A stretch of DNA of 64,000 nt, from NCBI GenBank assembly GCA_964435785.1, contig CAYTAH010000002.1, positions 11,438-75,437 of the forward strand. The letters run 5' to 3'. Under the pieces are notes generated by a model, which was not told the DNA's origin, did not search any database, and saw only the letters and a list, made by a program, of their open reading frames with translations. The position numbers and the translations under genes were made by a program. This DNA is from an uncultured Phycisphaeraceae bacterium (GTDB taxonomy: Bacteria; Planctomycetota; Phycisphaerae; Phycisphaerales; UBA1924). Of the stretch, positions 7,186 through 64,000 are shown one piece after another; position 1 is the stretch's first letter, and every line of letters starts with the position of its first letter.

Positions 7186-7321
7186 GAGCCCGTCACTCTA
7201 GGAAAACGCGGCGTCTGCCGCGAATCGGCTTGCTGGGTGCGCCCCGGCGTGTCATCCTCACGGGAGGCCGCGGGACTGTTGCCCGGCAGTGGCGTTGAAG
7301 GACGGGGTGGAGTTGCGGATC

Positions 7322-8179
7322 ATGCGGATCATCATCGCGGGTGGGCTGGCGGTCGCCGTGGTCGGGCCGGCGCCGGAGGCCCGCGCCGACTACACCCACA
7401 ACATCATGCTCACCGGCTACTGGCCGCCGACGGCGAGCATGGTCGAGCGTTTCAGCACCGACCCCGATCTCAACCCCGGGGGCTGGGTCGGCGGCAACTG
7501 GGAAGGGCGGGGGTACGACATCTACTCGTTCTTCCCCGCGTTCGTGGACGACGGCGACAACGACTGGGGGCAGGGATCGGGCGACTTCGAGGTGGATTAT
7601 CAGGACACGTCCGCGGACTGGGCGCGGATCACGCAGGAGATCCGTCCCGCGGCGATCATCACGTTCAGCCGCGGCGGGCGGGGGAGCAATTGGGAGATCG
7701 AGAGCCACCACCGGCTGCGTGCGCCGGAGCAGTGGGCGCCGGACTACACCGATCCGTTCCAGCCGAGCCTCGACATGCCCATCTACCAGTCGCTCGAGAT
7801 CGGCGCGGAGCTGTACAGCACGCTGCCGATGGAGGAGATCCGCGACGCCGTCGCCGACGCGGGGGTGGTGAACAACGCGTACATCGATTGGAACGGCACC
7901 GGGGGGAACTACCTCTCCGAGTTCATCGGGCTGCACGGGGTGTGGTACAACTCGCTCAACGACTCCCAGGGCGCTGATTGGCGGAACTTCGCGGCCGGGC
8001 ACATCCACGTCGGGATGCAGACGCCGCTGGACGGCGCGATCGCCGCGACGGAGATCACGCTGCGCGAACTGACGGCGTATCTCGACACGGTAATCCCGGC
8101 GCCGGGGGCACTGGCGCTGAGCGGTCCCGTGATGGCTCTGCTGGCGGCACGACGGCGACGCGGACCGGGAAGCCGATAG
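7322..8179 (+). CDS. peptidase C15 (pyroglutamyl-peptidase)-like fold protein with PEP-CTERM tail
   Basis: Signal peptide 'MRIIIAGGLAVAVVGPAPEARA'. 'MLTGYWPP', 'ITFSRGG..WEIE' and 'AGHIHVG' resemble the Pcp layout. The C-terminal 'VIPAPGALALSGPVMALLAARRRR' reads as a PEP-CTERM sorting signal. Confidence 0.55.
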   Translation: MRIIIAGGLAVAVVGPAPEARADYTHNIMLTGYWPPTASMVERFSTDPDLNPGGWVGGNWEGRGYDIYSFFPAFVDDGDNDWGQGSGDFEVDYQDTSADWARITQEIRPAAIITFSRGGRGSNWEIESHHRLRAPEQWAPDYTDPFQPSLDMPIYQSLEIGAELYSTLPMEEIRDAVADAGVVNNAYIDWNGTGGNYLSEFIGLHGVWYNSLNDSQGADWRNFAAGHIHVGMQTPLDGAIAATEITLRELTAYLDTVIPAPGALALSGPVMALLAARRRRGPGSR

Positions 8180-8358: not shown

Positions 8359-10401
8359 ATGCGCTGCGTGCACGGGCTCCGACTTCACCAGACGGAGAAG
8401 GAGAACCCCCATGAAGCCCCGGTACACCCGCCGCGTGCGTGGGCTGGTGGGACGGCGCTCGCCGCAGTGATGACGTGGTCAGCGCCGCCCTGCGCTGCGC
8501 AGGAGTGCGTTTGGCGAGCATCCAACCCGGACGCCTCCTGGGGGCGCGTCATGGCCACCGATGAGGTCCGCCGGGAGACCGTGCTCTATTGGGCTCGCGT
8601 CATGTATCCATTCCCGTGCGAGACATGGACGTGGGATGGTGACCGGTGGACGCTCCGCGGCACGGAGGGTCCTCCGGCCCGTGACCAGGCGGCCATGGTC
8701 TTCGACGCGGCGCGTGGCGAGACGCTGCTCTTCGGCGGGCTGGGCGGTGTCCGGTACGGCGACACGTGGACCTGGGACGGGGCGAGGTGGACGCTCGAGA
8801 CGACCGATGGGCCGTCGCCGCGTCGGGCGCACGCGATGGCGTACGACCCCGCACGCGGTGAGGTGGTGCTGTTCGGAGGGCGCGCGGCCGAGCTCAGTGG
8901 CGAGACATGGATCTGGAATGGTGAGGCGTGGCGCCTTGCATCCACCACCGGGCCCGCTGCGCGGGCGCGTCACGGCATGGCCTATGACCCGATCAGCGGC
9001 GAGGTGCTGCTCTGCTGCGGTGCGAACGACACCCAGTTCTTGAGCGATACCTGGAGCTGGGATGGCGGCGCGTGGACGCTGCGTTCGCCGGGAAACTCAC
9101 TGTTCCGGGCGGCGGGAGCCGCCATGGCGTTGGACGATTCGTCTGGGAGCGTCATCCGCTTCGGGGGGGATGTCCCCGACGACGGCTTGAACAACGGGGT
9201 CACCGATGAGACGTACGCGTGGGATGGAACCGCGTGGCACCGGGTGCATAGCGCCGAGCCTGGCGCAAGGTCCTCTTGCGGGATGGCGCCCGATCCGGTG
9301 CGGCCGGGGCTCATCCTCTTCGGCGGCTACGACGGGCTCGTCAGCCACTACAGCGACATGTGGCGCTGGAGTTCGGGTGATTGGGAGCTGATGGGATTGA
9401 CCTCGCTGGAGATCCCTTACCCGGTCGGTCCTCTCGTGTTTGATTCCGTTCGTGCGCATGCGCTGTTTGTTCCGCAGGGTGAAGCCCGAGATTCGTGGCC
9501 CTGGGTCTGGGACGGATCGCTCTGGCGAGCTTCCGACATGCCGCGCCGGCGGCTCTCGAGCGGGGGCGCCGCGGCGTTCGACGAGGCGCGAGGCCAACTG
9601 GTCCTGCTGTCCGGGGCGTCGACCTGGCTGTGGGATGGCGAGCAGTGGCACGAGCGGGTAGTCCCCGGTCCCGGAGAGCGTCTGCATCACGCGATGGCCT
9701 TCGACCGCGCCGGCGGCCACGTCCTTCTCTTCGGGGGATCGACGGGAGGGAACGCGGCCGGCGACACGTGGCTGTGGGACGGTGACGCGTGGACGCACGC
9801 GGCGGCGCAGGGTCCCTCACCGCGCTGGGGAGCGGCTCTGGCCTTCGATGAGGCCGGAGGGAGGCTCGTTCTCTTCGGCGGCACGGACGGGACAGAACTC
9901 TCCGGCCAGACGTGGGGGTGGACAGGATTCGGCTGGGAGCTCCTCTCGGAGGATGGGCCCTCGCCCCGATTCGCGGGCGCGATGGCGTACGCCCCGCAGG
10001 TCGGCGGCCTGCTCCTGACCGGGGGGACGACCGGCGAGTACGAGCAGCCGCTCGCCGACTCTTGGCTATGGCGTGGCGGAGCGTGGAGCGAGATCTCCCT
10101 GGACGGCCTGTCCGGGCGGGCGCACCACTCCATGCGGCTCGACACGGCGGACGAGGAGCTCATGGCCTTCGGCGGGAAGGATGGGCCCAACCACCTCGCC
10201 GACCTGCGCGTGTTCGTGTTGGATTGTGGCGATGCGTGCCGCGTCGACTGGAACGGAGATTCGAGCGTGGACACGCGCGACGTCGTCGGGTTCCTGCTCG
10301 CCTGGGCGAACGGTGAGCCGGGGGCCGACTGGGATGGTGACGGCACGATCGGCGCCCAAGACGTCATCGCCTTCCTGAGCGACTGGGGCGCCGGCTGCTG
10401 A
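8359..10401 (+). CDS. Kelch/galactose-oxidase-type beta-propeller repeat protein with C-terminal dockerin-like module ending AGC
   Basis: 11 repeats of 'TW.WDG..W' spaced about 50 aa apart. The C-terminus has two 'DW[ND]GD...D' EF-hand-like loops and ends '..FLSDWGAGC'. The start is ambiguous (see finding). Confidence 0.75.
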   Translation: MRCVHGLRLHQTEKENPHEAPVHPPRAWAGGTALAAVMTWSAPPCAAQECVWRASNPDASWGRVMATDEVRRETVLYWARVMYPFPCETWTWDGDRWTLRGTEGPPARDQAAMVFDAARGETLLFGGLGGVRYGDTWTWDGARWTLETTDGPSPRRAHAMAYDPARGEVVLFGGRAAELSGETWIWNGEAWRLASTTGPAARARHGMAYDPISGEVLLCCGANDTQFLSDTWSWDGGAWTLRSPGNSLFRAAGAAMALDDSSGSVIRFGGDVPDDGLNNGVTDETYAWDGTAWHRVHSAEPGARSSCGMAPDPVRPGLILFGGYDGLVSHYSDMWRWSSGDWELMGLTSLEIPYPVGPLVFDSVRAHALFVPQGEARDSWPWVWDGSLWRASDMPRRRLSSGGAAAFDEARGQLVLLSGASTWLWDGEQWHERVVPGPGERLHHAMAFDRAGGHVLLFGGSTGGNAAGDTWLWDGDAWTHAAAQGPSPRWGAALAFDEAGGRLVLFGGTDGTELSGQTWGWTGFGWELLSEDGPSPRFAGAMAYAPQVGGLLLTGGTTGEYEQPLADSWLWRGGAWSEISLDGLSGRAHHSMRLDTADEELMAFGGKDGPNHLADLRVFVLDCGDACRVDWNGDSSVDTRDVVGFLLAWANGEPGADWDGDGTIGAQDVIAFLSDWGAGC

Positions 10402-23212: not shown

Positions 23213-26200
23213 TCAGATCGATCCGGTCTCGCCCAGGGGCACGCCGAGGGTCCCGAACGCGCCGGGGAAGAAGGCGTCGTAGCGGCCGAGGTACGCGACG
23301 ATCGGCGAGGCGGCCTTCACGGTGATGCCGTAGAAGACGTCCTGGTTGCGCCGGTCTCCGGTGACGAACTCGTGGACGTCGAATTCCGACACGCGGCGCG
23401 GATCGAGCACGCGCCGGAACGTCTCCTGGCCCAGCGGCGTGTTCGTGCCCTTGAAGTTCCCGTCGAAGCGGATGGTGATCTCCACCACGATCGGCGTGTT
23501 CTCCGGGTTGAACAGGCGCAGGTACTCCGTCACGTGCTGGTCGTAGCCGTTCTGCGGCCGGAAGCCGGCGCCGAACGCCCAGAGCGTGTACGCCTCGTCG
23601 GCGAACATCGTGGAGGCGCCGTCGCTGAAGATGAGCGTGGGCAGCGACATCGCCACCGGGAGCGGCGACTCGTAGACGATCGAGTAGGCCTGGCCACGCG
23701 GGAAGTTGGGCAGGGCCGTGACATCCAGCTCGGCGCGCCCGCGCGCCGGCACCTCGAGCTGCGTGCGGTAGGCGCTCCCGTTCTCGAACAGGAAGGCGAA
23801 CACGACCGTCGTGGAGCTCTCGTTGGCGTTGGTGACGCCGATGACCTCCTCGGTGGCGTTGAGCCCGACCTCGCCCTCGGGCGTGGCGCCCGTGGTCGAG
23901 CCGAGGTTGGGCAGCCCGATCTCGCCCGCGGCCGAGATCGTCCCCGACGCGGCGCCCGAGTCGTACGCCTGGTGCGACGCGACGATCTCGCCCTGGGCCT
24001 CGATGACCATGCCGTAGGTGCCGTCGGGCAGCTCGGGCACGGCGGAGAGGTTCCATCCGCCGCGCCGGTAGGGCCCGAGCTCCTGGGTGAGCACGATCTC
24101 CTCGCCGCCGCCGGTGGGGAGCAGGGTGGTCGTGACCTTGATCGTCCGGTCGGTCGTGTTCATGTAGACGGGGAAGTCGAACCGGCCCTCGCCCTTGCCC
24201 ACCGAGCTGAACGTCCAGGTGTCGCTCGTGGTCGCGGTGAAGGACTCGCCGACGGCGGCGCGCTCGCCCTCGAGGAGGAAGGTGTCGAAGTAGCTGAACG
24301 TCGCCGCGATGGGGCGCTCCGCGCGGATCTCGAGGGCGTAGGGCTCGTCGGGGCGGACCAGCGAGCCGCCCGGGTTGCCGAAGCCGGTCTCGTAGAGGTC
24401 CGGCGTGTTGGTGGTGATGCCGCCGCGGGCCTGGGGCTCGATCACGAAGTCGGCGATGACGTCGTCGCGCGACCCCGACTCGTACCGGGCGATGACGACG
24501 ACGCGGGTCGCCTGGTCGTGCGGGTTGATCATGGGGACGAAGCTGTAGATGAAGGGGCTCGAGAACCCGGCCGGGTAGTAGTACCGGTAGGCGAGGGTCG
24601 GCGCCGTCTCGCCGTTGGACAGCGTCTCGCTCGAGGGGTTCGCGGGATCGCCGCTCAGGTGCCCCTCGCCCGTTCCGGTGTTGACCTCGTCGTACATCGC
24701 CTGGGCTTCGGCGGCCGACTCGCCGAAGAAGATGAAGTAGCGGATCGTCGCCGACCCGCCCGGGGCGATCGTGCCCACGTCGAAGGCCAGCGCCATGAGC
24801 AGGTCGTCCGTGGCGCCGTCGGGGTCGTTGACGCCGCCCTCGAGGATCTGGCTCGGATCGCGTATGACCACGGCGTCGGTGTCCACGAACGTCGCCATGG
24901 CGCGGGTGTCGGACGCCGGCGCCCCCATCGCGATGGTGAGCCCCTGCGGGTAGGCGTTGGTCACGACGCTGGAGCGGGCGTACTTCGCGGCCCCGTCCAC
25001 GTCGTTGGCCGTGCTCAGGCCCGCGTCGAGGTTGAGCCCCTGGTTGGGGTCGAACGCCTCGAGCCAAGCCACGTTGAAGGCGTCCTGGGTCGAGGTGTTG
25101 GTCAGCACGACGTCGAAGACCATGAACCGGTCGGAGTTCCCCAGCGTGATCGTCCGCTCGACCTTCATCGTGCGGAAGAGCCCCGAGGCGCCGATGCGGC
25201 TGTTGAAGGGGTCGCTCTGGTTGGTGAGCGAGACGGGCAGCGAGGTCGGCCCGCGCTCGCCGTCATTCATGAAGTCGTAGCCGGAGGCGGTCAGGCCGTA
25301 CATGGAGGTCAGCCCGTCGCCGTCGTCGGAGTCGAGGAGGAAGTCGATCCCGTCGAACTCAAGGCCGAGCGGGTTGCCGTTGGTGTCGTCGGCGCCGAAG
25401 GTGCCGTCGCTGGCGACACCCGCCTCGATGATCGACGCCCCGTCGAGGATCGTCGCCCCGTCGGAGATCCCCGGCGAGACCGTGACCGTGAGGCGGTATG
25501 ACCCGGTCGTCTCCGCCGGGTCGCCGCTCGTGACGTCGAAGGGGTCGTAGTCCGTGTTCGCCCCCTCGCTCACGCCGATGTAGTACACGCCGCCGGCCGG
25601 GAAGACGAACCCGGTGAGCGTCGCGTTGCGGGTGCCGTCCGGGCTCGCGGCCTTGAGCTCGTTGCCCTCCGCGTCGAACAGGCGCAGCGCCGTGTCCAGC
25701 GAGCCGCCGGTGGAGGCGGCCGAGGCGTTCAGCGTGGCGCCCGCGTCCACGGTGAACCTGAAGAGGTCGCGGTCGAGCATGCCGAATCCGCCGTCGCCGA
25801 TCTCGGCGTCGCGGGTCGCGGTGCCGGTGCCGTCGATCTCGTCGAGCTCGCGCGCCGTCGGGAGCGTGTCGTTCGACTCGAACGGGCCGAAGATGTCGTT
25901 CTCGAGCGTGAAGTCGAGCGACCAGCTGTTGAGCTGGCCGCTGTTGAGCGCCGAGAGATCGCGGATCAGCAGCGTCCAGGTCCCCAGCGCCGAGATGCCG
26001 TCGAACTTGTTCAGGCCGTTCGTCGGGCGAAGCGACCCGGAGTAGGGGGGTGTCGCGTCGGCGATGTTCCCCGCCGCCTCGTCGTCGAGCAGCACGTTGT
26101 TGAAGTCGTCGCCGTCGGCCCCGTGGCGGTCGAAGATCACCTGCTGCGTGCCGTTGGGCGCGATCAGCGTGATCTCCAGGTCGCCCACGAACGAGTGGTC

Positions 26201-28693
26201 CATGTCCAGGCGCAGGTTCAGATCCTTGACCGCCCGGGCGTCGGACACGAAGAGCCCCACGCTCTGGGTGCCCTGCGTGCCCACCGCCGGCACGGGGATC
26301 GGCTCGCTGAAGTCGCTCGCGACCGTCAGGCGGTCGTCGGCGATCCGCTGGTACCCCAGGCGCAGGTTGTACACGCCCGTGGACTGGGTGCGCCCGCTCC
26401 CCGCGACCGCGGGGTCGTAATCGGAGTTCGGGAAGCCCGAGACGCCGACGTAGTACGTCCCGCCCGTGGTCACGAAGTAGTCGAGGAACGAGTCGCGCCC
26501 GTAGAACTGGTCGTTGGCCGCCAGCTCGACGCCGTTGGCGTCGAACAGGCGCAGGTACGAGTCCAGGTCCGAGGGGATGTCCAGATTGGCCGCGATGACC
26601 TCCGCCGTGATCAGCCCGCCGCGGGGCAGCGTGATCTTGTAGAGGTCCACGTCCAGCCCGGCCGAGAGGCCGTCGCCGAGGGTGACGCTGCTGTAGGTCG
26701 CGTCGCCGCTCCCGCCGAAGACCACCGGTGTCGCGGAGGCCATCGTGTCGTTGGGCTCGAGGTTGCCGCCCACGCCGACCACTTCGAAGTCGTACTCGGC
26801 GTCGTCCCCGCCCGAGCTGTCGCCGTTGAGCAGGTTGCCGTCGAGGTCCTGGAACTTGGGGTCGCCCGGCGTGCCCGCGAACAGGGTGAGCTGGTAGTGC
26901 CCCAGCGGGAGCCGCTGCTGCGGCACGCCCGTCAGGTCGAGATGGATGTCCACCACGCGTGTCTCGCCGGCGCGGAGCTCCACGTCTGTCACCGGCACGA
27001 GGCCGGAGTCGTCGTCGCCCGTCCCCATGATGCCGTCGGGACCGGCGAACGTCAGCAGCGCGGCGGAGGCGTCCAGCGTGCTCCCGTCGATGTCCTTGTT
27101 GAAGGTCACGGTGATCGTGTCGATCGGCAGCCCCGTGTCCGGGTCGATGCGAGGCGTGACCGGGCCCGGGTCGAACCCGATCGCGACCGGCCCGTCGGTG
27201 CCGATGATCTGCAGGCTCCGGGCGAGGTTGATCCGGCCGCCCGCCACGACGCGCCCCTGGAGGCTCGGGAGCACGTCCGAGCCGTCGATCAGCGCCTGAC
27301 GGATCTCCGTCGCCGAGGCGTTGGGGCGGAACGACTTCAGGAGCGCCACGGCGCCCGTCACGATGGGCGCCGAGTAGGAGGTTCCGGAGCCGAAGCCGTA
27401 GGAGCTGCCGAGCACGGTCGAGTACACCAGCTGCCCCGGCGCGGCGAAGTCGACGCGCTTGGCGCCCCAGTTGCTGAAGCCGGCCAGCGTGTCGCGGTTG
27501 TCGGTCGCGGCGACGGAGATGAGGCCGGGGATGTTGTACGAGGCGGGGAACGCGGTGAAGTCGGGGTTGTCCAGATCGAAGCTGTCGTTGCCCGCCGCAG
27601 CGACGAACGCCGCGCCGGTCGCCACGAACCGGGCGATGGCGTCACGCTCCGCGTCGAAGCCCTCCGGTGCGTCCTCGTAGAACGTGTCGTTGATGCCGCG
27701 GTAGCTCGCGTTCGAGGCGACGATGTTGTGGCCGTAGTCCTCGATCATCATCGTCAGGTAGTCGTGCGAGCTGACGAGAGACTCGAGCGTGAAGAACCCG
27801 CCCGAGGAGGCCTTCACCGGGAGGATCGAGACATTCCAGGCGGTGCCGGTGATCCCGATGCCGTTGTTGCCCGCGGCGCCGATGAGGCCGGAAACGAACG
27901 TCCCGTGGCCCTCGGTGTCCTGCGCGCTGTTGTCGCCGCTCGAGAAGTCCCACCCGCTGACGTCGTCGATGAAGCCGTTGCCGTCGTCGTCGATCCCGTT
28001 GCCGGCGATCTCGCCGGGGTTCCGCCAGATGTTGGGCGCCAGGTCGGGGTGGTTGAAATCGATGCCCGAGTCGATGACGCCCACGATCACGTCGTGCGAG
28101 CCGATCGTGATGTCCCACGCCTCCAGCGCGCTCACGTCCGCCCCGATGATCCCCGACTGCCCGCCGACGGTCTGTCCCGTGTTGTCGAACTGCCACTGGT
28201 TGGCGAAGCCGGGGTCGTCCGGGAGCCGCTGCTCCTGGCTCAGCACGTTCGGCTCGAAGGCCTTCACCCAGCGGAAGGAGGCCGTCGCGTTCCGGATCGC
28301 CCAGTCGCTGGGGGAGGTCTCGAACGTGATCGACGCCCAGCGGCCGCGGCCGAGAGACTGCACCGAGGCCACCGGCTGGCCGGTCGCGCCAGCCAGCTGC
28401 CGCGCGAGGTCCTTGGCCCGATCCCACCCGTAGGCGTCGTCGAAGGTGACGACCCAGGAATTCTTCACGGCCAGCACGCCGGCGCCCTTCCAGGCCACCC
28501 GCTCCACCGCGCTCCCGGGACGCTCCTCGGCGCCGAAGGCCAGGTCGGGCGTCGCCGCCCCGCTCCAGTCCGCCGCCAGGAGCACCCGCGGCTCCAGTGT
28601 CTCGATCAGCGACACGTCGCGACCGGCCGCGCGAAACACCTGGGAAGCATCAGCGTCGACGGCCCGATCACGGACAGAACGGCTCAGCGGCAT
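23213..28693 (-). CDS. 1826-aa subtilisin-like (S8) serine protease with P-domain, PPC-type domains and a large uncharacterised C-terminal region
   Basis: Catalytic D208 'VGVIDSGID', H263 'GHGTFVSG', N369 'AAAGND' and S438 'GSGTSYSAP'. 'LRLDMDHSFVGDLEITLIAPNG' is a proprotein-convertase P-domain. 'EPNDT' and 'ESNDT' are pre-peptidase C-terminal domains. Confidence 0.9.
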   Translation of the reverse strand: MPLSRSVRDRAVDADASQVFRAAGRDVSLIETLEPRVLLAADWSGAATPDLAFGAEERPGSAVERVAWKGAGVLAVKNSWVVTFDDAYGWDRAKDLARQLAGATGQPVASVQSLGRGRWASITFETSPSDWAIRNATASFRWVKAFEPNVLSQEQRLPDDPGFANQWQFDNTGQTVGGQSGIIGADVSALEAWDITIGSHDVIVGVIDSGIDFNHPDLAPNIWRNPGEIAGNGIDDDGNGFIDDVSGWDFSSGDNSAQDTEGHGTFVSGLIGAAGNNGIGITGTAWNVSILPVKASSGGFFTLESLVSSHDYLTMMIEDYGHNIVASNASYRGINDTFYEDAPEGFDAERDAIARFVATGAAFVAAAGNDSFDLDNPDFTAFPASYNIPGLISVAATDNRDTLAGFSNWGAKRVDFAAPGQLVYSTVLGSSYGFGSGTSYSAPIVTGAVALLKSFRPNASATEIRQALIDGSDVLPSLQGRVVAGGRINLARSLQIIGTDGPVAIGFDPGPVTPRIDPDTGLPIDTITVTFNKDIDGSTLDASAALLTFAGPDGIMGTGDDDSGLVPVTDVELRAGETRVVDIHLDLTGVPQQRLPLGHYQLTLFAGTPGDPKFQDLDGNLLNGDSSGGDDAEYDFEVVGVGGNLEPNDTMASATPVVFGGSGDATYSSVTLGDGLSAGLDVDLYKITLPRGGLITAEVIAANLDIPSDLDSYLRLFDANGVELAANDQFYGRDSFLDYFVTTGGTYYVGVSGFPNSDYDPAVAGSGRTQSTGVYNLRLGYQRIADDRLTVASDFSEPIPVPAVGTQGTQSVGLFVSDARAVKDLNLRLDMDHSFVGDLEITLIAPNGTQQVIFDRHGADGDDFNNVLLDDEAAGNIADATPPYSGSLRPTNGLNKFDGISALGTWTLLIRDLSALNSGQLNSWSLDFTLENDIFGPFESNDTLPTARELDEIDGTGTATRDAEIGDGGFGMLDRDLFRFTVDAGATLNASAASTGGSLDTALRLFDAEGNELKAASPDGTRNATLTGFVFPAGGVYYIGVSEGANTDYDPFDVTSGDPAETTGSYRLTVTVSPGISDGATILDGASIIEAGVASDGTFGADDTNGNPLGLEFDGIDFLLDSDDGDGLTSMYGLTASGYDFMNDGERGPTSLPVSLTNQSDPFNSRIGASGLFRTMKVERTITLGNSDRFMVFDVVLTNTSTQDAFNVAWLEAFDPNQGLNLDAGLSTANDVDGAAKYARSSVVTNAYPQGLTIAMGAPASDTRAMATFVDTDAVVIRDPSQILEGGVNDPDGATDDLLMALAFDVGTIAPGGSATIRYFIFFGESAAEAQAMYDEVNTGTGEGHLSGDPANPSSETLSNGETAPTLAYRYYYPAGFSSPFIYSFVPMINPHDQATRVVVIARYESGSRDDVIADFVIEPQARGGITTNTPDLYETGFGNPGGSLVRPDEPYALEIRAERPIAATFSYFDTFLLEGERAAVGESFTATTSDTWTFSSVGKGEGRFDFPVYMNTTDRTIKVTTTLLPTGGGEEIVLTQELGPYRRGGWNLSAVPELPDGTYGMVIEAQGEIVASHQAYDSGAASGTISAAGEIGLPNLGSTTGATPEGEVGLNATEEVIGVTNANESSTTVVFAFLFENGSAYRTQLEVPARGRAELDVTALPNFPRGQAYSIVYESPLPVAMSLPTLIFSDGASTMFADEAYTLWAFGAGFRPQNGYDQHVTEYLRLFNPENTPIVVEITIRFDGNFKGTNTPLGQETFRRVLDPRRVSEFDVHEFVTGDRRNQDVFYGITVKAASPIVAYLGRYDAFFPGAFGTLGVPLGETGSI

Positions 28694-31068: not shown

Positions 31069-32838
31069 TCAGGACTGCCCCGCCGCGAGATGGTCGCGCG
31101 CGACCTCCAGGGCGTGCCTGGTGTCGCCGCAGAGGTTGTGCTCGCCGATCTTGTCGAGCAGCCCCGACTGGGTCATCGCGAAGAGGGGCTGGGCGTGCAA
31201 CCCGGCCAGCAGCAGGCGCGTGCCCGAGCGCGCGCACTTGTCGTGGAACTCCTCCAGCGCGTGCATCCCCGTCGCGTCGATCGCGGGGACGTTCTTGAGG
31301 CGAAGGACGAAGACCTTCGGCGGACGTTCGAACTGGGCGAGCGTGTCCTTGAGCCGGTCGGCGACGCCGAAGAAGAAGGGCCCGTTGATCTCGTACATCT
31401 CGACGGCGGGCGGCACCGCCCGGTGCTTCTCCTCCTCGGCCTGAAGGCCGGCGCGCTCCGCCTCGTCCTTTCCGTTCGCGAGCTCGTCGCGGAGCGTGCC
31501 GATCGCCGAGACCTCCGACATCCGCTTCATGAAGAGCATCGAGGCGAGGACCATGCCGACGGCCACCGCCACCGTCAGATCGGTCAGCACCGTGAGCCCG
31601 AAGGTGGTCAGCAGCACGACGATGTCGCTCTTGGGCGCCCGCAGGATGGCGCGGAAGTGACCGATCTCCGAGATGTTCCACGCGACCAGGATCAGCACCG
31701 CCGCGAGCGATGCCAGCGGGATCAGCTTCGCCAGATCCGCCGCGAGCAGCATGAACACGAGGATGAAGGCGGCGTGGAGCACCCCGGCGATGGGCGTCGA
31801 GCCGCCGCTCTTGATGTTCGCCACGGTGCGCGCGATGGCGCCGGTCGCGGGGATCCCGAAGAAGAGGGCCGAGCCGATGTTCGCCACCCCCTGGGCCGCC
31901 AGCTCGCAGTCCGACTTGTGGCGGTAGCCCGTCATGCCGTCGGCGACGACCGCCGAGAGGAGCGATTCGATCGCCGCCAGCACCGCGATCGTCGTCGCGG
32001 CCGGGAACAGCTCGCGGATCAGCTCCCAGCTCAGCGAGGGCAGGCGGGGCGCCGGAAGGGAGTGGGGGATGCCCCCGAAGCGCGACCCGATGGTCTCGAC
32101 CGGCCCGCCGGCCGCAGCGTCCCAGCCCAGCGCCGCCACCGCCGCGGCGCTCAGGCCCACGGCCACGATCGCCCCGGGCACCCTGGGCACGACACGGCGC
32201 ATCGCGACCAGCAGGGCCAGCGATCCGGCGCCGATGACGACCGTCTGCCAGCTCGTGCTCTCGGCGTGCTGCGCGAGCATCTGGAGCTTGGGCACGAACT
32301 CGGCGGGCACCGACAGCCGCTCCCCGCCATCGCCGACGAGACGGAGCCCGAGGAAGTCCTTCAGCTGGCTGGCGACGATCGTGACCGCGATCCCCGCGGT
32401 GAACCCGGTCGTCACCGGGTAGGGGATGAACTTGATCACCGCGCCCAGCCGGAACACGCCCATGAGGATCAGGATGACGCCGGCCATCAGCGTCGCCAGC
32501 GCCAGGCCGGCGTACCCGTGCTCGAACGCGATCGAGAAGACGATCGGGACGAACGCCGCGGTGGGCCCGCCGATCTGCACGCGCGAGCCGCCGAGGAACG
32601 AGATCAGCGCCCCCGCGATGATCGCCGTGTAGAGCCCCATGGCCGGGGGGCTCAGCCACGGGTGCTCACCCTGCAGCGAGCCCGCCACCGACGCGGGGAT
32701 GGAGGCGATGCCCAGCGCCATCGCCAGCGGCAGGGCGATCACCGCGACCGTCAGACCGGCGCCCAGGTCCCCGAGAAACCGGCGTCTCGAGTAGCCCTCA
32801 CGCAAACAGACGACCAGCTTCGGAACGAAGCGAGGCAT
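31069..32838 (-). CDS. SulP family anion permease with C-terminal STAS domain
   Basis: 'DLGAGLTVAVIALPLAMALG.ASI' is the SulP signature. STAS region 'VFVLRLKNVPAIDATGMHAL'. Confidence 0.9.
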   Translation of the reverse strand: MPRFVPKLVVCLREGYSRRRFLGDLGAGLTVAVIALPLAMALGIASIPASVAGSLQGEHPWLSPPAMGLYTAIIAGALISFLGGSRVQIGGPTAAFVPIVFSIAFEHGYAGLALATLMAGVILILMGVFRLGAVIKFIPYPVTTGFTAGIAVTIVASQLKDFLGLRLVGDGGERLSVPAEFVPKLQMLAQHAESTSWQTVVIGAGSLALLVAMRRVVPRVPGAIVAVGLSAAAVAALGWDAAAGGPVETIGSRFGGIPHSLPAPRLPSLSWELIRELFPAATTIAVLAAIESLLSAVVADGMTGYRHKSDCELAAQGVANIGSALFFGIPATGAIARTVANIKSGGSTPIAGVLHAAFILVFMLLAADLAKLIPLASLAAVLILVAWNISEIGHFRAILRAPKSDIVVLLTTFGLTVLTDLTVAVAVGMVLASMLFMKRMSEVSAIGTLRDELANGKDEAERAGLQAEEEKHRAVPPAVEMYEINGPFFFGVADRLKDTLAQFERPPKVFVLRLKNVPAIDATGMHALEEFHDKCARSGTRLLLAGLHAQPLFAMTQSGLLDKIGEHNLCGDTRHALEVARDHLAAGQS

Positions 32839-32912
32839 CGGCGACATCTCCCGCGGGTGAGGCCCGAACGATACGCACAGGTCCACAAATGTCTACGGCG
32901 CGTCTGGGGTGC

Positions 32913-32948
32913 AATCAGCAAGCAGCCCGGCCGCGAGGGCCGGGCTGC
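32913..32948 (-). terminator. rho-independent terminator after the Trp/Asn-rich gene
   Basis: On the minus strand: GCAGCCCGGCC-CTCGC-GGCCGGGCTGC (11-bp perfect stem) followed by TTGCTGATT. Confidence 0.6.
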
Positions 32949-32982
32949 CGAGGAGTCACCATGCAGTCGTGCTATCCCGGGC

Positions 32983-33771
32983 TCAGGCGGCCTCGCGCCC
33001 CGTGCAGCCCGCCGTGGCGGGCACGCAGTTGCCGAAGGGGGTCGGGAAGCCGTTGGCGGTATACCCGAACGTCGTGCCCGTGTTGCTCACCGGCACGGTG
33101 TTGGCGGGCGTGTAGTTGGCGGTCGCGGGGTTCCACGGCGTGTTCCACACGGGGGTGGTGTTCCAGGAGGAGTTGATCGGCGCAAAGCCGCTGGTGTTGA
33201 CGGGATAGCCGGCGTTGGTCGGGAAGAACTGGCCGAACCCCGTGGGGGTGAGCCAGGGGTTGGTCGCGAAGGGGCTGTACGTCGGGACGGAGTTGGTCGC
33301 GATCGGAAGCCCGTAGGTGTTCCCGATCGAGGGGTAGCCGGCGCCGTTCCACTGCCCGACCGGCGTCCCCCAGCTGGTGCCGTGCTGCGGGAAGAAGGCG
33401 CCGGCATTCCACCCGACCACGCTGTTCCACGGGGTGGTATTCCAGGAATTGGTGTTCCAGGGGTTGGTGTTCCAGTGGGCGGCGGGGCTCCACCAGCCGC
33501 TGCCGTTAAAGATCGAGGGAACATTCCAGCCGAAGTTGCCGGTGGGCACGTTCCATCCCTGATTGAAGCCGACGCCCGGGACGAAGCTCTGGCCGGTCGT
33601 GTTGCCGAACCACCAGCCGTTGGGGCCGTAGCCGTAGCCGCCGACCGGCGTGCCGTTCCACGGGTTGAAGAAGGAGACAGGGTGCCCGAACCAGGGGCTC
33701 TGGTACGCGTTCCAGGAGGGGAAGCCGCCTGTGGGGATGGTGCTGGTGGGCGTGCAGAAGCTCGTGTTCAT
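32983..33771 (-). CDS. 262-aa charge-free Trp/Asn/Gly/Pro/Thr-rich low-complexity protein, unknown family
   Basis: ATG at 33771 with an AAGGA RBS about 8 nt upstream. Strong GC3 bias in this frame (AAC, TGG, GGC, CCC, ACC, TTC codons). It has its own terminator. The upstream 312 codons of ORF 32983..34707 are non-coding-looking. Confidence 0.6.
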   Translation of the reverse strand: MNTSFCTPTSTIPTGGFPSWNAYQSPWFGHPVSFFNPWNGTPVGGYGYGPNGWWFGNTTGQSFVPGVGFNQGWNVPTGNFGWNVPSIFNGSGWWSPAAHWNTNPWNTNSWNTTPWNSVVGWNAGAFFPQHGTSWGTPVGQWNGAGYPSIGNTYGLPIATNSVPTYSPFATNPWLTPTGFGQFFPTNAGYPVNTSGFAPINSSWNTTPVWNTPWNPATANYTPANTVPVSNTGTTFGYTANGFPTPFGNCVPATAGCTGREAA

Positions 33772-34276
33772 CCGGGTGTCCTTTCTCGAAAGGTGTCGCT
33801 GACCGACCGTGGTCGCGCGCCCCCACGGGCGCGTGCTGCGCTGGGAGGCCCGCCGGTGCGCCGGCGGGCCGGAAGCTTGGTTATCGGCGGCCCGTCGAGG
33901 CGGACTTGCGAACGACCTGGTCGTGCGCTGGTCCCGCCGGGCGGCGCCGGTCCGGCAAAATCTGCATCGGCGCGGGCGCGGGCCGGTATGAGTCAAGGTG
34001 TGCGGATTGTGCGGGAATGCGGCGAGTGAGAACCGGGCGGGTGCATCCCGAGCGTCCCGCGCCCGTAGAACGTGGCGAGCGCCGTGGGGGACCGGGGCGT
34101 CGGCCGGTGACCGGGACATGCCGCCCAGATGCCGAACGGGCTCCGGTCGGGGCGGCCCACGATGGAACTTCCCGCGTCCGAAGGCGTCGGGTAAAGTAGC
34201 GAGAGAGGAGTGGTTGGAGCGCTCATCGGCCTCGGTCCGATGAGACGAGCCGGGGTATGACCCCGGGAGGCCTCTG

Positions 34277-35200
34277 ATGAAGGTCCGGACGTATGTTGTC
34301 GGCGCCGCCGCTCTCGCGGCATTGGGCTGCACGCTCTCGACGCCGGTCCTGGCGCAGGAGACCGTGTACAACGCGGCCGTCGCCCCCTCGCCCACGCAGC
34401 TCAAGCGCGAGACGCTCACCCGCATGATGCGCCAGGTCCCCGACGTGAGCTTCAAGGACCACCGGCTCGAGGACGTGGTCCGGTTCATCTCCGACATCAC
34501 GGGCGCCTCTCTCGAGCCGCTCTGGATCGACGATCGCACGGTGGACGGGCTGGACCGCGACACGCTGGTCACGCTCGAGGTCAAGCGAGTCTCGGCGCTC
34601 AAGCTTCTCGAGATGGTCTTGGAGAAGTCCGAGGGGGACACCACGGCGTACACCGGCGGCAACGGCTGGCAGATGACCGACTGGGGCACCATGGAGATCG
34701 GGCCCAAGTCCGTCCTGGCGAGGAACTCGCGCCTCGAGGTCTATCCGATCAACGATCTGCTCTGGGAGATCCCCAACTTCGATGAGGCGCCCGAGATCGA
34801 CCTCCAGAGCGTGCTCCAGAGCTCGCAGGGCGGCGGCGGGCAGAGCCCGTTCACCAATACCCAGGTCCAGGACATCGAGCGGCGGACCATCGAGGAGCGC
34901 GCCGAGGACATCATCGATATCGTCGAGGCGCTCGTCGAGCCCGAGCAGTGGCTCTCCGGCGGAGGGAACGCCTCCATCCGCTACTTCCAGGGCAACCTGC
35001 TCGTCAAGGCGCCCGACTTCGTGCACCGCCAGCTCGGTGGCTACCCCTGGTGGCCCAGCGCCCAGACCAACGTCAGCGTCGTCAACGGGCGCCGGTACGT
35101 CAGCATCGGCGTGGACACCGGCATATCGACGGTGGACGATGTCGTCAACCAGCCGGTGACGGGCGTCGTGGGCGGCGGGCCTCCCGGTGGCGGCGGGTGA
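34277..35200 (+). CDS. secreted protein with secretin-N/STN-like domain and Gly-rich linker
   Basis: Signal peptide 'MKVRTYVVGAAALAALGCTLSTPVLAQ'. 'VSFKDHRLEDVVRFISDITGASL' resembles the N0/STN domain of the secretin at 59080. 'LEVYPINDLLWEIPNFDEAPE...GGGG' is a layout I recall from planctomycetal hypothetical proteins. Confidence 0.7.
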   Translation: MKVRTYVVGAAALAALGCTLSTPVLAQETVYNAAVAPSPTQLKRETLTRMMRQVPDVSFKDHRLEDVVRFISDITGASLEPLWIDDRTVDGLDRDTLVTLEVKRVSALKLLEMVLEKSEGDTTAYTGGNGWQMTDWGTMEIGPKSVLARNSRLEVYPINDLLWEIPNFDEAPEIDLQSVLQSSQGGGGQSPFTNTQVQDIERRTIEERAEDIIDIVEALVEPEQWLSGGGNASIRYFQGNLLVKAPDFVHRQLGGYPWWPSAQTNVSVVNGRRYVSIGVDTGISTVDDVVNQPVTGVVGGGPPGGGG

Positions 35201-35991
35201 CACGCTCGGAGAGACTGCGCCCGAAGGACATCAGGTCGAGCTTCCACGTCGTTAACGAATGCAGGGAGCTCGGGGCGGACCTTGTTGACTGGCAGGACCG
35301 GCTCCTGGCCGGCCTGTGCCACCTCCTCCATGCTCAGGTCGGCATCAGCGGCAACATGCGGAAGTTCGGCACGGGAGAGGCCGAGTCGCTCGGCTCCGTC
35401 CGGCGCGGCTGGCCCGACGAGCAGGCCGAGCGTCTCTGGCTGGACTACGCCCTCAACGTCCCCGTGGAGCGGACCCCCGAGTACCCCGCCCTGATCGGCA
35501 AGCACGACCGCCTCGTAACCCGGACCCGCGACCAGCTCTGGGGGCGCGAGGCGTGGTACCGCTCGCGCACGTTCAACGAGCGGCACCGGCGGGTCGGGAT
35601 CGACGACTACGTCATCTCGATCCAGCGCCTGCCGTTCGGCGACATGTGGCACTCGCTCTGGGTGCACCGGGCCATCGGCGAGCCCGGGTTCTCGCGCCGG
35701 GAGTGGTGGATCGTCCGCTGTGTTCACGAGGAGATAGGCAAGCTCATCGGCAACGCCCTGGCCTCCGCCGCCGAGCCCCGCGTCCGTGACCTCACCCCGC
35801 GCCAGCGGGACGCCCTCGACGGCCTGCTCGAGGGCCTGAGCGAGAAGGACCTGGCCGCACGCCTGGGCGTCAGCCGCGCCACCGCCCACGAGCACGTCCT
35901 GGCGATCTACCGCCACTTCGGCGTGGCGGGGAGGGCCGAGTTGCTGGCCCTCTTTGTCGGGCGGGAGGCCCCCCGATCTCGGGAGCCGTAA
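35197..35991 (+). CDS. LuxR/GerE-type HTH transcriptional regulator
   Basis: C-terminal 'LTPRQRDALDGLLEGLSEKDLAARLGVSRATAHEHVLAIYRHFGV'. The GTG start overlaps the upstream stop (GTGA). An alternative internal ATG lies at about 35357. Confidence 0.78.
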   Translation: MTRSERLRPKDIRSSFHVVNECRELGADLVDWQDRLLAGLCHLLHAQVGISGNMRKFGTGEAESLGSVRRGWPDEQAERLWLDYALNVPVERTPEYPALIGKHDRLVTRTRDQLWGREAWYRSRTFNERHRRVGIDDYVISIQRLPFGDMWHSLWVHRAIGEPGFSRREWWIVRCVHEEIGKLIGNALASAAEPRVRDLTPRQRDALDGLLEGLSEKDLAARLGVSRATAHEHVLAIYRHFGVAGRAELLALFVGREAPRSREP

Positions 35992-36132: not shown

Positions 36133-37080
36133 ATGACACGCAACCGCACGAACACACTCTGCCTGACACTGCTCGCCCTCGCCGGCGTCGCCGGCACCGC
36201 AGAGGCCGGCGATCTGTACTTCGCGGCCGACGCCGGCATCATCTGGCACTTCGACACCGACACCGGGACGGTCGGCCAGGGCGTCTCCTGCGGGGGGGCC
36301 GTCGAGGGCCTCGCCCTGCAGGGACGCGACGTGCTCGCGGCCTCGGCCGACGGGAACATCTACCGCGTCGATCTGGACACCGGGGCCTTCAAGGACGTGA
36401 TCCCGGTGAGCGGATCGCCCCTCTCGCTCACCCGCTGGGGCAACACCCTCTACCTGACCACCAGCAACGGCGACATGCAGTGGCTGGACGCCGATGACGG
36501 GTCGGTGATCGACACGTACTACGTCCACGACCCTCTCCAGGCCACGATGCTCTTCGGGAACCGGATCTTCACCGGCAGCCACAGCACGGCCGTCTACGTC
36601 TCCCCGATCGGCGAGATGGACTTCCAGTTCTTCACCGCATGCGGCGGGAGCGTGAACTCCATCACCACCAACGGGGTCGACGTCGTGATCGGGGCCCTCC
36701 AGGGCACAGTCTACATCTACGACGCGACCAACGGCAACTACAAGGGCACCTTCGCCGTCCAGTCCGACTGCGTCGGCGTCGCCTTCGTGGACGACAGGCT
36801 CTTCATCGCCGGCAGCGACGGGAAGATCCACAAGATGAACCTGGCCAATGGGGCCGTCGAGCAGACGTACGACACGGGCCGGACCATCACCGCAATGGCC
36901 TCCGCCGAGCCGTGCGCCGCCGACTTCAACGCCGACGGCGTCGTGAACACGCTTGACTTCCTTGATTTCTTCAACGCGTGGACCTCCAGGGACCAGTCGG
37001 CCGACTTCGACGGCAACGGGGTCGTCAACACCCAGGACGTGCTGGTGTTCCTCAACGCCTTCACGGCCGGGTGTGCCTGA
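36133..37080 (+). CDS. secreted beta-propeller (PQQ/WD-like) protein with dockerin-like module ending AGCA
   Basis: GGAGG RBS 7 nt upstream of the ATG. Signal peptide 'LCLTLLALAGVAGTAEA'. Repeated 'DG.I....D..TG' blades. C-terminal 'DFNADGVVNTLDFLDFFNAW...DFDGNGVVNTQDVLVFLNAFTAGCA'. Confidence 0.75.
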   Translation: MTRNRTNTLCLTLLALAGVAGTAEAGDLYFAADAGIIWHFDTDTGTVGQGVSCGGAVEGLALQGRDVLAASADGNIYRVDLDTGAFKDVIPVSGSPLSLTRWGNTLYLTTSNGDMQWLDADDGSVIDTYYVHDPLQATMLFGNRIFTGSHSTAVYVSPIGEMDFQFFTACGGSVNSITTNGVDVVIGALQGTVYIYDATNGNYKGTFAVQSDCVGVAFVDDRLFIAGSDGKIHKMNLANGAVEQTYDTGRTITAMASAEPCAADFNADGVVNTLDFLDFFNAWTSRDQSADFDGNGVVNTQDVLVFLNAFTAGCA

Positions 37081-44345: not shown

Positions 44346-44882
44346 ATGAGCACTCGTGCTATCGCCATGACGGCCGGCCTGATCGCCCTGACCGCCGCGA
44401 CGGCCCAGGCGGATTTCATTCGTGAGGTCGCCACGGGGACATTCGAGGTCACGTCCGACGACGGCGTGACCCGCACGATGAGCCACGACCTGACGGTGAT
44501 CAGCGAGATCGGCGGCTGGGGGATTCTGACCATCGACGCCGACACCGAGCAGACGTTCCAGGCCGGGCCCGACCCGCTGACCGGCACCGCGACCTTCTAC
44601 GGCGCCACGCCGGACGACTTCATCGTGGTTTCTATGACCGGCGTGCTCGACAGCCAGGACGGACAGCCGAACTTCTCCTTCTCCGGCTTGTGGGAGACCA
44701 CAAGCACCGGCGGCGACTATGCCGGCCTGACCGGGAGCGGCGATTTCTCGGGATCCGGCTATTTCACCGACGCCGATTCGGGCATCATGGACATGATCTT
44801 CCAGGGTGACCTGGTCCCGACGCCCGCCACCGCGTCGCTGCTCGCGCTCGGCGGCCTCTTCGCCTCGCGCCGGCGCCGCTGA
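44346..44882 (+). CDS. PEP-CTERM sorting domain secreted protein
   Basis: Signal peptide 'MSTRAIAMTAGLIALTAATAQA'. C-terminal 'VPTPATASLLALGGLFASRRRR'. Confidence 0.75.
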   Translation: MSTRAIAMTAGLIALTAATAQADFIREVATGTFEVTSDDGVTRTMSHDLTVISEIGGWGILTIDADTEQTFQAGPDPLTGTATFYGATPDDFIVVSMTGVLDSQDGQPNFSFSGLWETTSTGGDYAGLTGSGDFSGSGYFTDADSGIMDMIFQGDLVPTPATASLLALGGLFASRRRR

Positions 44883-63170: not shown

Positions 63171-63827
63171 TCAGCGCCGTCGGCGGCCCATCAGCCCCGC
63201 GAGCGCCAGCACCGAGAGCGACGCGGGCGCGGGGATCGCCGTGTACAGATCGTCGATGCCCCACGAATCGGTGGATGTGTTCGACCCGATCACCGCCCGC
63301 GTGATGAGCACGTCGGACACCACGCCGAAGAACGAGTCCGGCAGCGTCTTCGGGGCCGCGGAGCTGAACGAGCCGATCAGCCCCGATGCGCCGTAGATCG
63401 TGATGTTGAACGTGTCCAGCGGCGCCCCGTCGGCGACATAAAACCCGACCGCCTGGCTCGCGGTGCCGAAGACGAACTCGATCGTGCCGGTCGCGAAGAA
63501 CGGGCTCGCCAGATCGTTGCTCAGGAAGTTCGCGCCGCTGGGCAGCGTGCCCGGCGTGAACATGCCGAAGGGCAGGTCCGCCTCCGCCGTCACGTTCACG
63601 TCGACGGCGACGCCGGTGCGATCGGTGCCGACGACCGCGCTGATCCCGCTCGCCGGGAGGCTCGTAATCGTGGTCCCCGACCCGAACCCCTCGAAGTTCT
63701 CCAGAGTCGGCCCGAACGTCATGTCCGGGTCCGCCAGGAACGACGCCAGATCCTCGTGCGACTGGATGTCGGCCTGCGCCACGCCGGCCCCGAGCGCGAC
63801 CACGAGCAAGCACGTGTACCTCGACAT
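63171..63827 (-). CDS. PEP-CTERM sorting domain secreted protein
   Basis: Signal peptide 'MSRYTCLLVVALGAGVAQA'. C-terminal 'IPAPASLSVLALAGLMGRRRR'. AAGGAG RBS. Confidence 0.75.
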   Translation of the reverse strand: MSRYTCLLVVALGAGVAQADIQSHEDLASFLADPDMTFGPTLENFEGFGSGTTITSLPASGISAVVGTDRTGVAVDVNVTAEADLPFGMFTPGTLPSGANFLSNDLASPFFATGTIEFVFGTASQAVGFYVADGAPLDTFNITIYGASGLIGSFSSAAPKTLPDSFFGVVSDVLITRAVIGSNTSTDSWGIDDLYTAIPAPASLSVLALAGLMGRRRR

Positions 63828-64000
63828 GTCTCTCTCTCCTTCAGCCCCGAGGGCGGGGCGACTCTCTCCGGGCCACCCCCGTGTGGCCACCAGGTCCGAG
63901 AATACCAGGTGCCGCCCCAGCGCTCAACCCCTTGTGTCCCCCGGGCGCGGCGGGCGCTTCAGTCCCGGAGCCCCGCCCGGAGAGTCACCCGCGCCCGGGC

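Follow-up and report, generated by a model that had tools for sequence, protein, structure and literature searches.

Nup98-type nucleoporins (Nup98, Nup100/116, MacNup98A) carry cohesive FG-repeat domains of 500–700 residues with about one FG (mostly GLFG) motif per 12 residues; these domains have a median of only 2.5% charged residues, are as hydrophobic as globular proteins, have spacers made of G, T, S, A, N, Q and P (PMC4283134), and conserve composition rather than sequence. They are selected against W, Y, C and H, are attached to GLEBS/autoproteolytic anchor domains, and shorter spacers lower their saturation concentration (PMC9918544). The prion-like low-complexity domains of the hnRNPA1, FUS and TDP-43 class, with their kinked aromatic segments, are likewise polar, uncharged and G/N/S-rich, and have evenly spaced aromatic residues, a pattern argued to oppose aggregation (PMC8638251). 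Bacterial functional amyloids such as curli CsgA, Fap and the chaplins are exported structural proteins of Asn/Gly-rich low complexity; those of the curli/Fap type have a Sec signal peptide, family repeat units and a dedicated secretion operon. Here we describe a gene in an uncultured Phycisphaeraceae bacterium (contig CAYTAH010000002.1 of GCA_964435785.1) whose product has the chemistry of the first two of these classes; the window analysed is the 64,000-nucleotide stretch from 11,438 to 75,437 of that contig, and all coordinates below refer to it.

The ORF at 32983–33771 on the minus strand (stop codon 32983–32985) encodes a 262-residue protein with no Asp and no Lys, whose single Arg (259) and single Glu (260) lie in the terminal GREAA. 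It contains 20 Trp (7.6%), 13 of them in WN dipeptides, where 1000 shuffles of the sequence give 2.5 ± 1.4 with a maximum of 7. The 43 other plausible proteins of the window average 22.6% charged residues (minimum 13%), 2.1% Asn and 1.6% Trp, against 0.8%, 12.6% and 7.6% in this protein. A 15-nt tandem repeat at 33435–33475 (minus strand; Tandem Repeats Finder, 2.7 copies, 88% matches) encodes the run WNTNP-WNTNS-WNTTP. There are no K or R in the first 258 residues, the maximum 19-residue Kyte-Doolittle window is 0.27 and the N-terminus has no hydrophobic core, indicating that there is no signal peptide or transmembrane helix. The initial annotation, made from the sequence alone, had recorded these features, and its sequence observations hold apart from one proposed C-terminal link (below).

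The GC content by codon position, 0.44/0.64/0.94, resembles that of an antisense shadow ORF in a 70% GC genome, like those present elsewhere in the window, and a 979-residue ORF (31090–34029) is open on the plus strand. However, the plus-strand frame that shares third positions with the minus-strand ORF, the only antisense frame with high GC3, is broken by seven stops here and by 4–23 in most relatives (1 in locus L019; loci compared here carry L numbers), and the long plus-strand ORF has its third positions on the sense first positions (GC 0.44), so it is the shadow. A Shine-Dalgarno sequence, AAGGA (33779–33783, minus strand), lies 7 nt before the ATG, and an equivalent AAGGA or GGAG lies 6–10 nt upstream in 17 of 18 relatives examined. 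A GC-rich terminator-type hairpin lies 34 nt after the stop codon, with a perfect 11-bp stem at 32922–32948 that becomes 12 pairs with a G-U (32921–32949, minus strand, 5-nt loop); it has no canonical U-tract and was not called by a terminator scan, but a comparable strong hairpin, often followed by a T-tract, lies 25–60 nt after the stop in all 18 relatives. An Rfam search of 32700–34400 gave only a sub-threshold hit on this hairpin. The 505-bp divergent intergenic region at 33772–34276, which holds the promoters and leaders of both flanking genes, shares conserved sequence blocks with loci L090, L091 and L092, and the corresponding distance in relatives is 370–620 bp.

No described family was found for this protein. 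Scans of Pfam, NCBIfam, PHROGs and PADLOC (E up to 1–10) and a PDB profile search gave no match, the only PDB rows being HA70 at E of about 0.1, which is compositional noise. An exhaustive search of 1.84 billion proteins returned only five relatives, and a second profile search with a 22-member alignment of divergent members recovered only the close clade, because low-complexity words saturated the candidate list. Literature searches on Phycisphaerae or Planctomycetes with low-complexity, disordered or FG-repeat proteins found no description of such a family, the only item being a Gemmata beta-barrel protein with 5 FG. Full-length homologues share an N-terminal MNT.F, the GYGYGPNGWWFG motif and a C-terminal C.GREAA.

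Synteny reveals a larger family, several times the number found by sequence search. In Phycisphaerales, ORFs of 224–464 residues often lie divergently upstream of one conserved gene, represented here at 34277–35200 (plus strand). Such ORFs occur at this position in L001, L003, L004, L006, L008 and L090–L092 and in about 14 of 57 metagenome loci, and none was found elsewhere in the 673 kb examined. The conserved neighbour encodes a periplasmic protein with an evident Sec signal peptide, predicted to be built of secretin N0/N1-like domains; its AlphaFold2 model has a pLDDT of 70 and its best Foldseek hits are PilQ (3jc8_Qa, E=4e-4) and GspD (3oss/3ezj). More than 360 homologues of it were found, none with a precomputed Pfam domain, and every source-named hit is Phycisphaerales/Phycisphaera or unclassified Planctomycetota. 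Its stop codon is overlapped by a LuxR/GerE-type HTH gene (35197–35991, plus strand; PF00196, E=3.7e-8), a candidate regulator of the divergent pair that is in the same position in L006, L008, L090, L091 and L092. We note, however, that about three quarters of loci carrying the neighbour gene lack the ORF beside it, so any functional link between the two is at present only a suggestion.

Across 23 members there are 0–5 charged residues outside the last 20 amino acids (charged fraction 0.7–2.2%), 14–23% aromatic residues, 12.6–22% Asn, which runs against the 70% GC bias of the genome, and 7–15% Pro. Some members are W/N-rich and others FG-rich. Cys micro-motifs (CFPGCCPP, CCTP[FW], CP[VI][TI]) link clades that cannot otherwise be aligned. 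About 22% of possible nonsynonymous single-base changes would create D, E, K or R, and the chance of none among the roughly 135 replacements between two members is about 3e-15. The protein is only 41% identical between the window and L090, whereas the adjacent neighbour protein is 79% identical. dN/dS is 0.37–0.56 in the closest pairs of the family, which are in other clades; in the window's own clade the value (0.9) is uninformative because both site classes are near saturation at 41% identity with 94% GC3, and other contigs carrying the exact protein are identical at the DNA level across the coding sequence and so give no population-level estimate. Samples that carry the exact gene are JGI 3300009868, SRR10580903, SRR35045362 and SRR18243712. 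Together with indels in multiples of three and the conservation of start, Shine-Dalgarno site, stop and terminator in more than 20 divergent loci, these data show that the ORF is a real gene, and a chance or shadow ORF is effectively refuted.

The family signature, R-[ED]-[AV]-A, is formed by the last four residues of the C-terminal tail, here C-T-G-R-E-A-A (32986–33006, minus strand). Arg259 and Ala262 are invariant across 22 aligned members, and 21 of 23 members end in R[ED][AV]A; of 625 distinct high-GC3 ORFs in the 673 kb, 18 end this way and all 18 are family members. The initial annotation had proposed that an "AGC" element near this tail is shared with the ends of two dockerin-like proteins of the window (WGAGC and FTAGCA), hinting at a common processing or anchoring signal. 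This link does not hold: in those proteins it is the terminal GC of the GC-type dockerin domain (NF041540, E=1.2e-12 for the protein at 36133–37080; the second copy ends SDWGAGC at 10401), the Trp/Asn protein has no NCBIfam hit at E≤10, and its Cys, 6 residues from the end, is absent in several clades. Nor is the tail, AGCTGREAA, a sortase or exosortase (LPXTG, PEP-CTERM and relatives) sorting signal, as it lacks the hydrophobic helix and basic cluster; true PEP-CTERM-like tails occur elsewhere in the window. The terminal Ala-Ala recalls the ssrA-like degrons read by ClpXP, as in ssrA tags and Caulobacter CtrA, and 20 of 23 members end in AA, two in VA and one in GA. However, the antepenultimate residue is E or D in 21 of 23 members and is preceded by the invariant Arg, whereas the ssrA-type motif has a non-polar L-A-A, and no protease or adaptor gene is linked. 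No tmRNA gene, from which a native tag might be read, lies in the window or in any of the loci examined. A resemblance of a G-F-G-[LMI]-x-R tail to encapsulin cargo-loading peptides was also considered, but no encapsulin gene is among the adjacent genes scanned against Pfam (28.9–39 kb).

Comparison with the Nup98-type domains shows agreement in bulk chemistry. The window's protein, with 0.8% charged residues, has a mean Fauchere-Pliska (octanol-scale) hydrophobicity of 0.54 (0.40–0.56 in the family), against 0.39 for the window's other proteins, and its spacers are of similar composition. This is the combination reported as diagnostic of Nup98 FG domains (PMC4283134). The FG-rich member at L045 has 41 FG in 458 residues, about one per 11, and that at L040 has 23 FG, so some members are true FG-repeat proteins. 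On the other hand, there is no sequence homology to nucleoporins and no anchor domain, and the window's protein has only 6 FG and no GLFG, uses W, F and Y equally at one aromatic per ~5 residues, and contains the W (7.6%), Y (3.4%), Cys (3) and His (3) against which Nup98 domains are selected. The family's proteins are also shorter (224–464 residues against 500–700) and carry the conserved free C-terminal R[ED]AA tail. As in prion-like domains, aromatic residues are more evenly spaced than chance: the coefficient of variation of aromatic gaps is 0.59 against 0.87 in shuffles (0 of 1000 as low), and 17 of 23 members have p<0.05. Unlike those domains it is a stand-alone protein rather than a tail on an RNA-binding domain, has roughly double the aromatic content, is rich in Trp and Pro, and has virtually no Arg to act as co-stickers. 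AlphaFold2 predicts disorder (mean pLDDT 36) except for a beta-hairpin around a P-N-G turn in the GYGYGPNGWWFG motif (residues 45–56; 33604–33639, minus strand), with strands at 42–49 and 52–57, the only blocks above 50; this motif is invariant in the close clade and present in 10 members. The low pLDDT may partly reflect a five-sequence alignment, so a repetitive beta fold is not excluded.

Our preferred, though still tentative, reading is that the product is a cohesive sticker-and-spacer protein in which aromatic stickers are separated by short uncharged polar or flexible spacers (N, T, G, P, S), and that selection in this Phycisphaerales-specific family acts on composition and on the R-[E/D]-A-A tail rather than on the sequence in between. 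By analogy with Nup98-type FG and prion-like domains, the chain would find water a poor solvent and self-associate through multivalent aromatic contacts into a condensed phase, gel or solid-like deposit; in the window's clade the GYGYGPNGWWFG hairpin would give one fixed interaction or nucleation element; and the free C-terminus would be read by a partner, most plausibly a ClpX-type protease or adaptor or else a PDZ-like docking site, controlling the amount or placement of the material. With no Sec or Tat signal the default location is the cytoplasm. The reality of the gene, the family, its compositional constraint, its tail, the aromatic spacing and the prediction of disorder are established by the analysis, whereas expression as a monocistronic, translated unit, self-assembly, phase separation, the reader of the tail and the cellular location are inferred from sequence alone. 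The aromatic density and Trp content are far above those of FG or prion-like domains, and the material could therefore be an insoluble solid rather than a reversible phase. The interpretation in the initial annotation is thus partly supported: a real gene in its own transcription unit, frame-conserving homologues and the absence of a described family are upheld, and of its analogies the FG-type/prion-like one fits best, while the sugar-binding, amyloid and phase-separation ideas stand only as hypotheses.

The main alternative, less likely but possible, is that the protein is an exported matrix, adhesive or glycan-binding mesh that leaves the cytoplasm by a non-classical route and acts in the periplasm or on the surface, its Trp, Asn and Thr side chains stacking on and hydrogen-bonding to polysaccharides, possibly together with the secretin-N-like neighbour. 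The envelope-related neighbours (the periplasmic secretin-N-like protein, a GC-type dockerin beta-propeller and a pseudopilin) and the conserved Cys motifs (up to 9 Cys), more typical of oxidising compartments, fit an extracytoplasmic role better than a cytoplasmic one, and the Thr/Pro/Asn-rich composition resembles extracellular linkers. The N-terminus, M-N/T-T, is also conserved, although A/T-rich start regions in a high-GC genome can explain this. However, none of the 23 members has a Sec, Tat or lipoprotein signal (no K/R and no hydrophobic core in the first 30 residues) or a transmembrane segment, N-glycosylation sequons are not enriched (9 observed against 6.1 ± 2.1 expected), and the association with the neighbour is absent in about 75% of loci. 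A functional amyloid or prion-like scaffold or heritable switch built of stable cross-beta fibrils is improbable. The Asn- and aromatic-rich, nearly charge-free composition is compatible with it, and segments such as GYGYGPNG, GNFGWN and GFNPGFTGFNPGF resemble low-complexity aromatic-rich kinked and steric-zipper segments, but Pro spread throughout disfavours long beta-sheet cores, the aromatics are evenly spaced rather than clustered, AlphaFold2 predicts no beta-solenoid, and there is no signal peptide, no curli/Fap-type repeat (regular 18–23-residue imperfect repeats), no Pfam hit and no csg or fap gene among the neighbours.

A processed RiPP-like or signalling precursor, with the tail as product and the body as carrier, is very unlikely; the two termini are the most conserved parts and the window's clade has a Cys near the end, but no modifying enzyme, protease or transporter gene is conserved alongside (the conserved neighbours are the secretin-N-like protein and GerE, and the others are SulP and HMG-CoA lyase), and strong compositional selection over 220–460 residues is not expected of a leader. 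A more speculative and also very unlikely possibility is a bacterial counterpart of the nuclear-pore FG phase, convergent with nucleoporins, in which a charge-free W/N- or FG-type meshwork would be held by its R[E/D]AA tail at a ring of the secretin-N-like protein and act as a selective permeability barrier or "greasy" uptake phase for glycans or other macromolecules at the envelope. It is not excluded, since FG-rich members exist, the locus linkage spans the whole divergence range of the neighbour (41–100% identity) and ring-building N0/N1-like domains are predicted, but the lack of an export signal in any member and of the gene at about 75% of neighbour loci weigh against it.

With no Lys and only one Arg the protein would be missed by tryptic proteomics, so its absence from existing proteomes says nothing. 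The family shows that position, composition and a four-residue tail can define a family that sequence search cannot see. If the inferred behaviour holds, it would be a natural and independently arisen bacterial example of the most extreme class of cohesive low-complexity proteins, otherwise known from eukaryotic nuclear pores and prion-like domains. Its related sequences, ranging from W/N to FG stickers with the same exclusion of charge, form a compact natural experiment that could test sticker-and-spacer rules such as W versus F versus Y, spacer length and Pro content. For planctomycete cell biology, the locus gives a conserved but uncharacterised trio: a predicted disordered protein, a secretin-N-like periplasmic protein and a LuxR-type regulator.

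The minus strand ORF at 32983–33771 encodes a 262 amino acid protein that begins MNTSFCTPTSTIPTGG and ends NCVPATAGCTGREAA. It contains no Asp and no Lys, its only Arg and Glu are residues 259 and 260, and 13 of its 20 Trp residues (7.6%) precede Asn; shuffled versions of the protein give 2.5 ± 1.4 WN dipeptides and never more than 7 in 1000 shuffles. Gly, Thr, Asn and Pro each make up 12.6–14.1% of the residues and aromatic residues total 18.7%, whereas 43 plausible proteins of the same window average 22.6% charged residues (minimum 13%), 2.1% Asn and 1.6% Trp. The 15 nt tandem repeat (33435–33475), the AAGGA site 7 nt before the ATG, the 505 bp upstream region and the perfect 11 bp hairpin (32922–32948) are all present, although the hairpin lacks a canonical U-tract. 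The composition and the gene signals reported in the initial annotation thus hold.

The GC content by codon position (0.44/0.64/0.94) is exactly that of antisense shadow ORFs in this 70% GC window, and the opposite strand carries an open 979 codon reading frame at 31090–34029 (+) that is antisense to the Trp/Asn gene and to its SulP neighbor. The only antisense frame that shares the high-GC third positions, however, contains 7 stop codons here and 4–23 in most relatives (1 in L019), and the long plus strand ORF (Arg/Gly/Ala/Pro-rich) places its third positions on the sense first positions (GC 0.44); it is a GC-rich shadow ORF and not a gene, but it could mislead gene callers. The low first-position GC of the Trp/Asn gene follows from its amino acid composition, since Asn, Thr, Trp, Phe, Tyr and Ser codons all start with A or T. 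In relatives the start codon, Shine-Dalgarno site, reading frame, stop codon and a strong downstream hairpin (often with a T-tract) are all conserved, and the gene is therefore real and monocistronic.

Searches of Pfam, NCBIfam, PHROGs, PADLOC and the PDB gave no match. A search of 5.8 billion clustered proteins found the protein itself (on at least 15 contigs) and four homologues that are 39–41% identical, and an exhaustive HMMER profile search of 1.84 billion representatives found five proteins in all. All have similar length and share MNTxFxTPTHTIPTG, FGYGYGPNGWWFG and VPAxAGCTGREAA. The genome hits are all Phycisphaerales or Planctomycetota MAGs, and the database names the proteins "hypothetical protein".

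The gene is divergently transcribed from a gene (34277–35200 (+)) that encodes a 307 amino acid protein with a signal peptide, which is followed by a LuxR/GerE regulator gene (35197–35991 (+)) whose start overlaps the stop codon of the former; the regulator follows it in all six loci whose gene tables were inspected. The secreted neighbor has more than 360 well-conserved homologues, of which those with a source name are labeled Phycisphaerales, Phycisphaera or unclassified Planctomycetota; none has a precomputed Pfam domain, and the neighbor itself matches no Pfam or NCBIfam family. Its structural model (pLDDT 70) best matches secretin N0/N1 domains (PilQ 3jc8_Qa at E = 4e-4, then GspD 3oss and 3ezj), it has no secretin pore domain, and it contains Gly-rich stretches (GGGGQSPF and a C-terminal GGGPPGGGG).

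We collected 80 metagenome loci and several genome loci that carry the neighbor (identified here by L numbers), and scanned all six frames for ORFs poor in charge and rich in aromatic residues. Such an ORF lies in the same place (divergent, 370–620 bp away and with high GC3) in every close genome locus and in about 14 of 57 metagenome loci with enough upstream DNA, and no such ORF occurs anywhere else in the 673 kb examined. In many loci that lack it (L016–L018, L020, L021, L031, L033–L035, L042 and L043) the position upstream of the secretin-N-like gene is held instead by a conserved ~244 amino acid protein (MGCKLTAYEVSST.GW...HRKAFRLK.F) of no known function. The charge-poor proteins are 224–464 amino acids long, with larger truncated examples, and most cannot be aligned with the window's protein. 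They have 0–5 charged residues outside the last 20 residues, 14–23% aromatics and 7–15% Pro, and their composition drifts between clades from W/N-rich to F/G/S-rich; the L045 member, with 41 FG dipeptides in 458 residues, reads like an FG nucleoporin. Short Cys motifs, CFPGCCPP, CCTP[FW] and CP[VI][TI], link the clades. Such Cys- and His-containing micro-motifs recur in the members from L006/L011/L014, L066/L072, L073 and L001/L008, including three copies of GHTCP[VI]TG in L066, and they may be metal-binding or disulphide sites.

Across 22 aligned members the only invariant positions are the initiator Met, an Arg at position -4 and the terminal Ala, and 21 of 23 members end in R-[ED]-[AV]-A. 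Among 625 distinct high-GC3 ORFs in all of the DNA examined, 18 end this way, and all 18 are family members. What few charges the proteins have cluster just before this tail. The initial annotation had proposed that an "AGC" element near the C-terminus is shared with two dockerin-like proteins of the window, but this is not the conserved feature. In those two proteins, encoded at 36133–37080 (+), which also has a BamB/PQQ-like beta-propeller, and by the ORF ending at 10401 (+), it is the end of a GC-type dockerin domain (NF041540), which the Trp/Asn protein lacks; they end ...NAFTAGCA and ...SDWGAGC, respectively, and similar endings appear in L053 and L073. The interpretation offered in the initial annotation is only partly supported.

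In the closest pairs of the family dN/dS is 0.37–0.56. The body of the protein is weakly constrained in sequence. Between the window and the related locus L090 the protein is 41% identical while the adjacent neighbor is 79% identical. About 22% of all possible nonsynonymous single-base changes would create a charged residue, and the probability of seeing none among roughly 135 replacements is near 3e-15 per pair. Asn at 12–22% also runs against the GC pressure of the genome. Composition is the selected trait, not sequence.

AlphaFold2, run on the five-sequence alignment, gives a mean pLDDT of 36 and predicts a single beta-hairpin at GYGYGPNGWWFG around the P-N-G turn. No member has a TM segment or a Sec or Tat-type N-terminus. 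Mean Fauchere-Pliska hydrophobicity (0.40–0.56) equals or exceeds that of the window's ordinary proteins (0.39), at about 1% charge. Schmidt and Gorlich describe this same combination as setting Nup98 FG domains apart from both typical disordered regions (28% charged) and globular proteins (24%), and report a median of 2.5% charged residues, spacers of G/T/S/A/N/Q/P and one FG per 12.5 residues (PMC4283134). Shorter spacers make such domains more cohesive (PMC9918544), and here the spacing is about 5 residues. In 17 of 23 members the aromatic residues are spaced more evenly than in shuffled sequences, the pattern discussed for prion-like domains (PMC8638251).

The divergent intergenic region (33772–34276) contains sequence blocks that are conserved among close relatives (L090, L091 and L092), including a palindromic CCGACGCCTTCGGACG(T)CGG element about 110 nt from the neighbor's start, CGCAATCCGCACACCTTCACTCATACCG, and GTTCGCAAGTCC...CCGCCGATAAC, and the leader before the Trp/Asn gene contains two perfect GC hairpins. 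These may be regulator sites or a structured 5' UTR; no Rfam family matches the region. Downstream of the Trp/Asn gene, a SulP/STAS sulfate permease gene (31069–32886 (-)) sits between it and the genes for a 129 amino acid membrane protein and HMG-CoA lyase. The permease gene is present in L090–L092 but absent in L001, L004 and L008, so it is a lineage-specific insertion into the syntenic block, and this supports the Trp/Asn gene being an independent unit; a sigma-70-like promoter match (32895–32868) lies just after the terminator hairpin. Beyond the regulator gene lie genes for the GC-dockerin beta-propeller protein, a pseudopilin and a PAC2-family protein. Elsewhere in the window, three proteins with signal peptides, encoded at 7289–8179 (+), 44346–44882 (+) and 63171–63890 (-), have PEP-CTERM-like C-terminal tails (...P.PA..(S)LLALGGL....RRRR), and L005 has two more, which implies an exosortase system in these organisms. 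We note also a very large ORF (about 1808 amino acids, GC3 of 0.97) at 23213–28639 (-).

The reality of the gene and the existence of its family are firmly established by these analyses, whereas self-assembly, the role of the tail and any cellular function are inferred. The most likely mechanism, which we put forward only tentatively, is multivalent aromatic self-association into a condensed phase, gel or solid, in which the tail would be a recognition handle that depends on a free C-terminus, either a degron or a docking site. The main alternative, which we consider less likely, is that the same material acts outside the cytoplasm, in the envelope; the Cys motifs and the neighbors suggest this, but the complete lack of export signals argues against it. 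That the protein is an amyloid is improbable, that it is a precursor peptide is very unlikely, and a spurious ORF is all but ruled out.

The protein differs from FG nucleoporins in FG density, in its lack of GLFG motifs and of an anchor domain, and in not avoiding W, Y, C and H. It likewise does not meet the criteria for curli-type amyloids, for dockerin_GC proteins, for sorting-signal proteins or for RiPP precursors. It does resemble Nup98-type FG domains and prion-like domains in its physical chemistry. No description of such a family was found in the literature searched, and it has no known bacterial counterpart. The observation is solid and unusual although the function remains inferred: this is a real gene of an undescribed, lineage-restricted family that is defined by its position, by a composition free of charge and dense in aromatic residues, and by a C-terminal R[E/D]AA tail.
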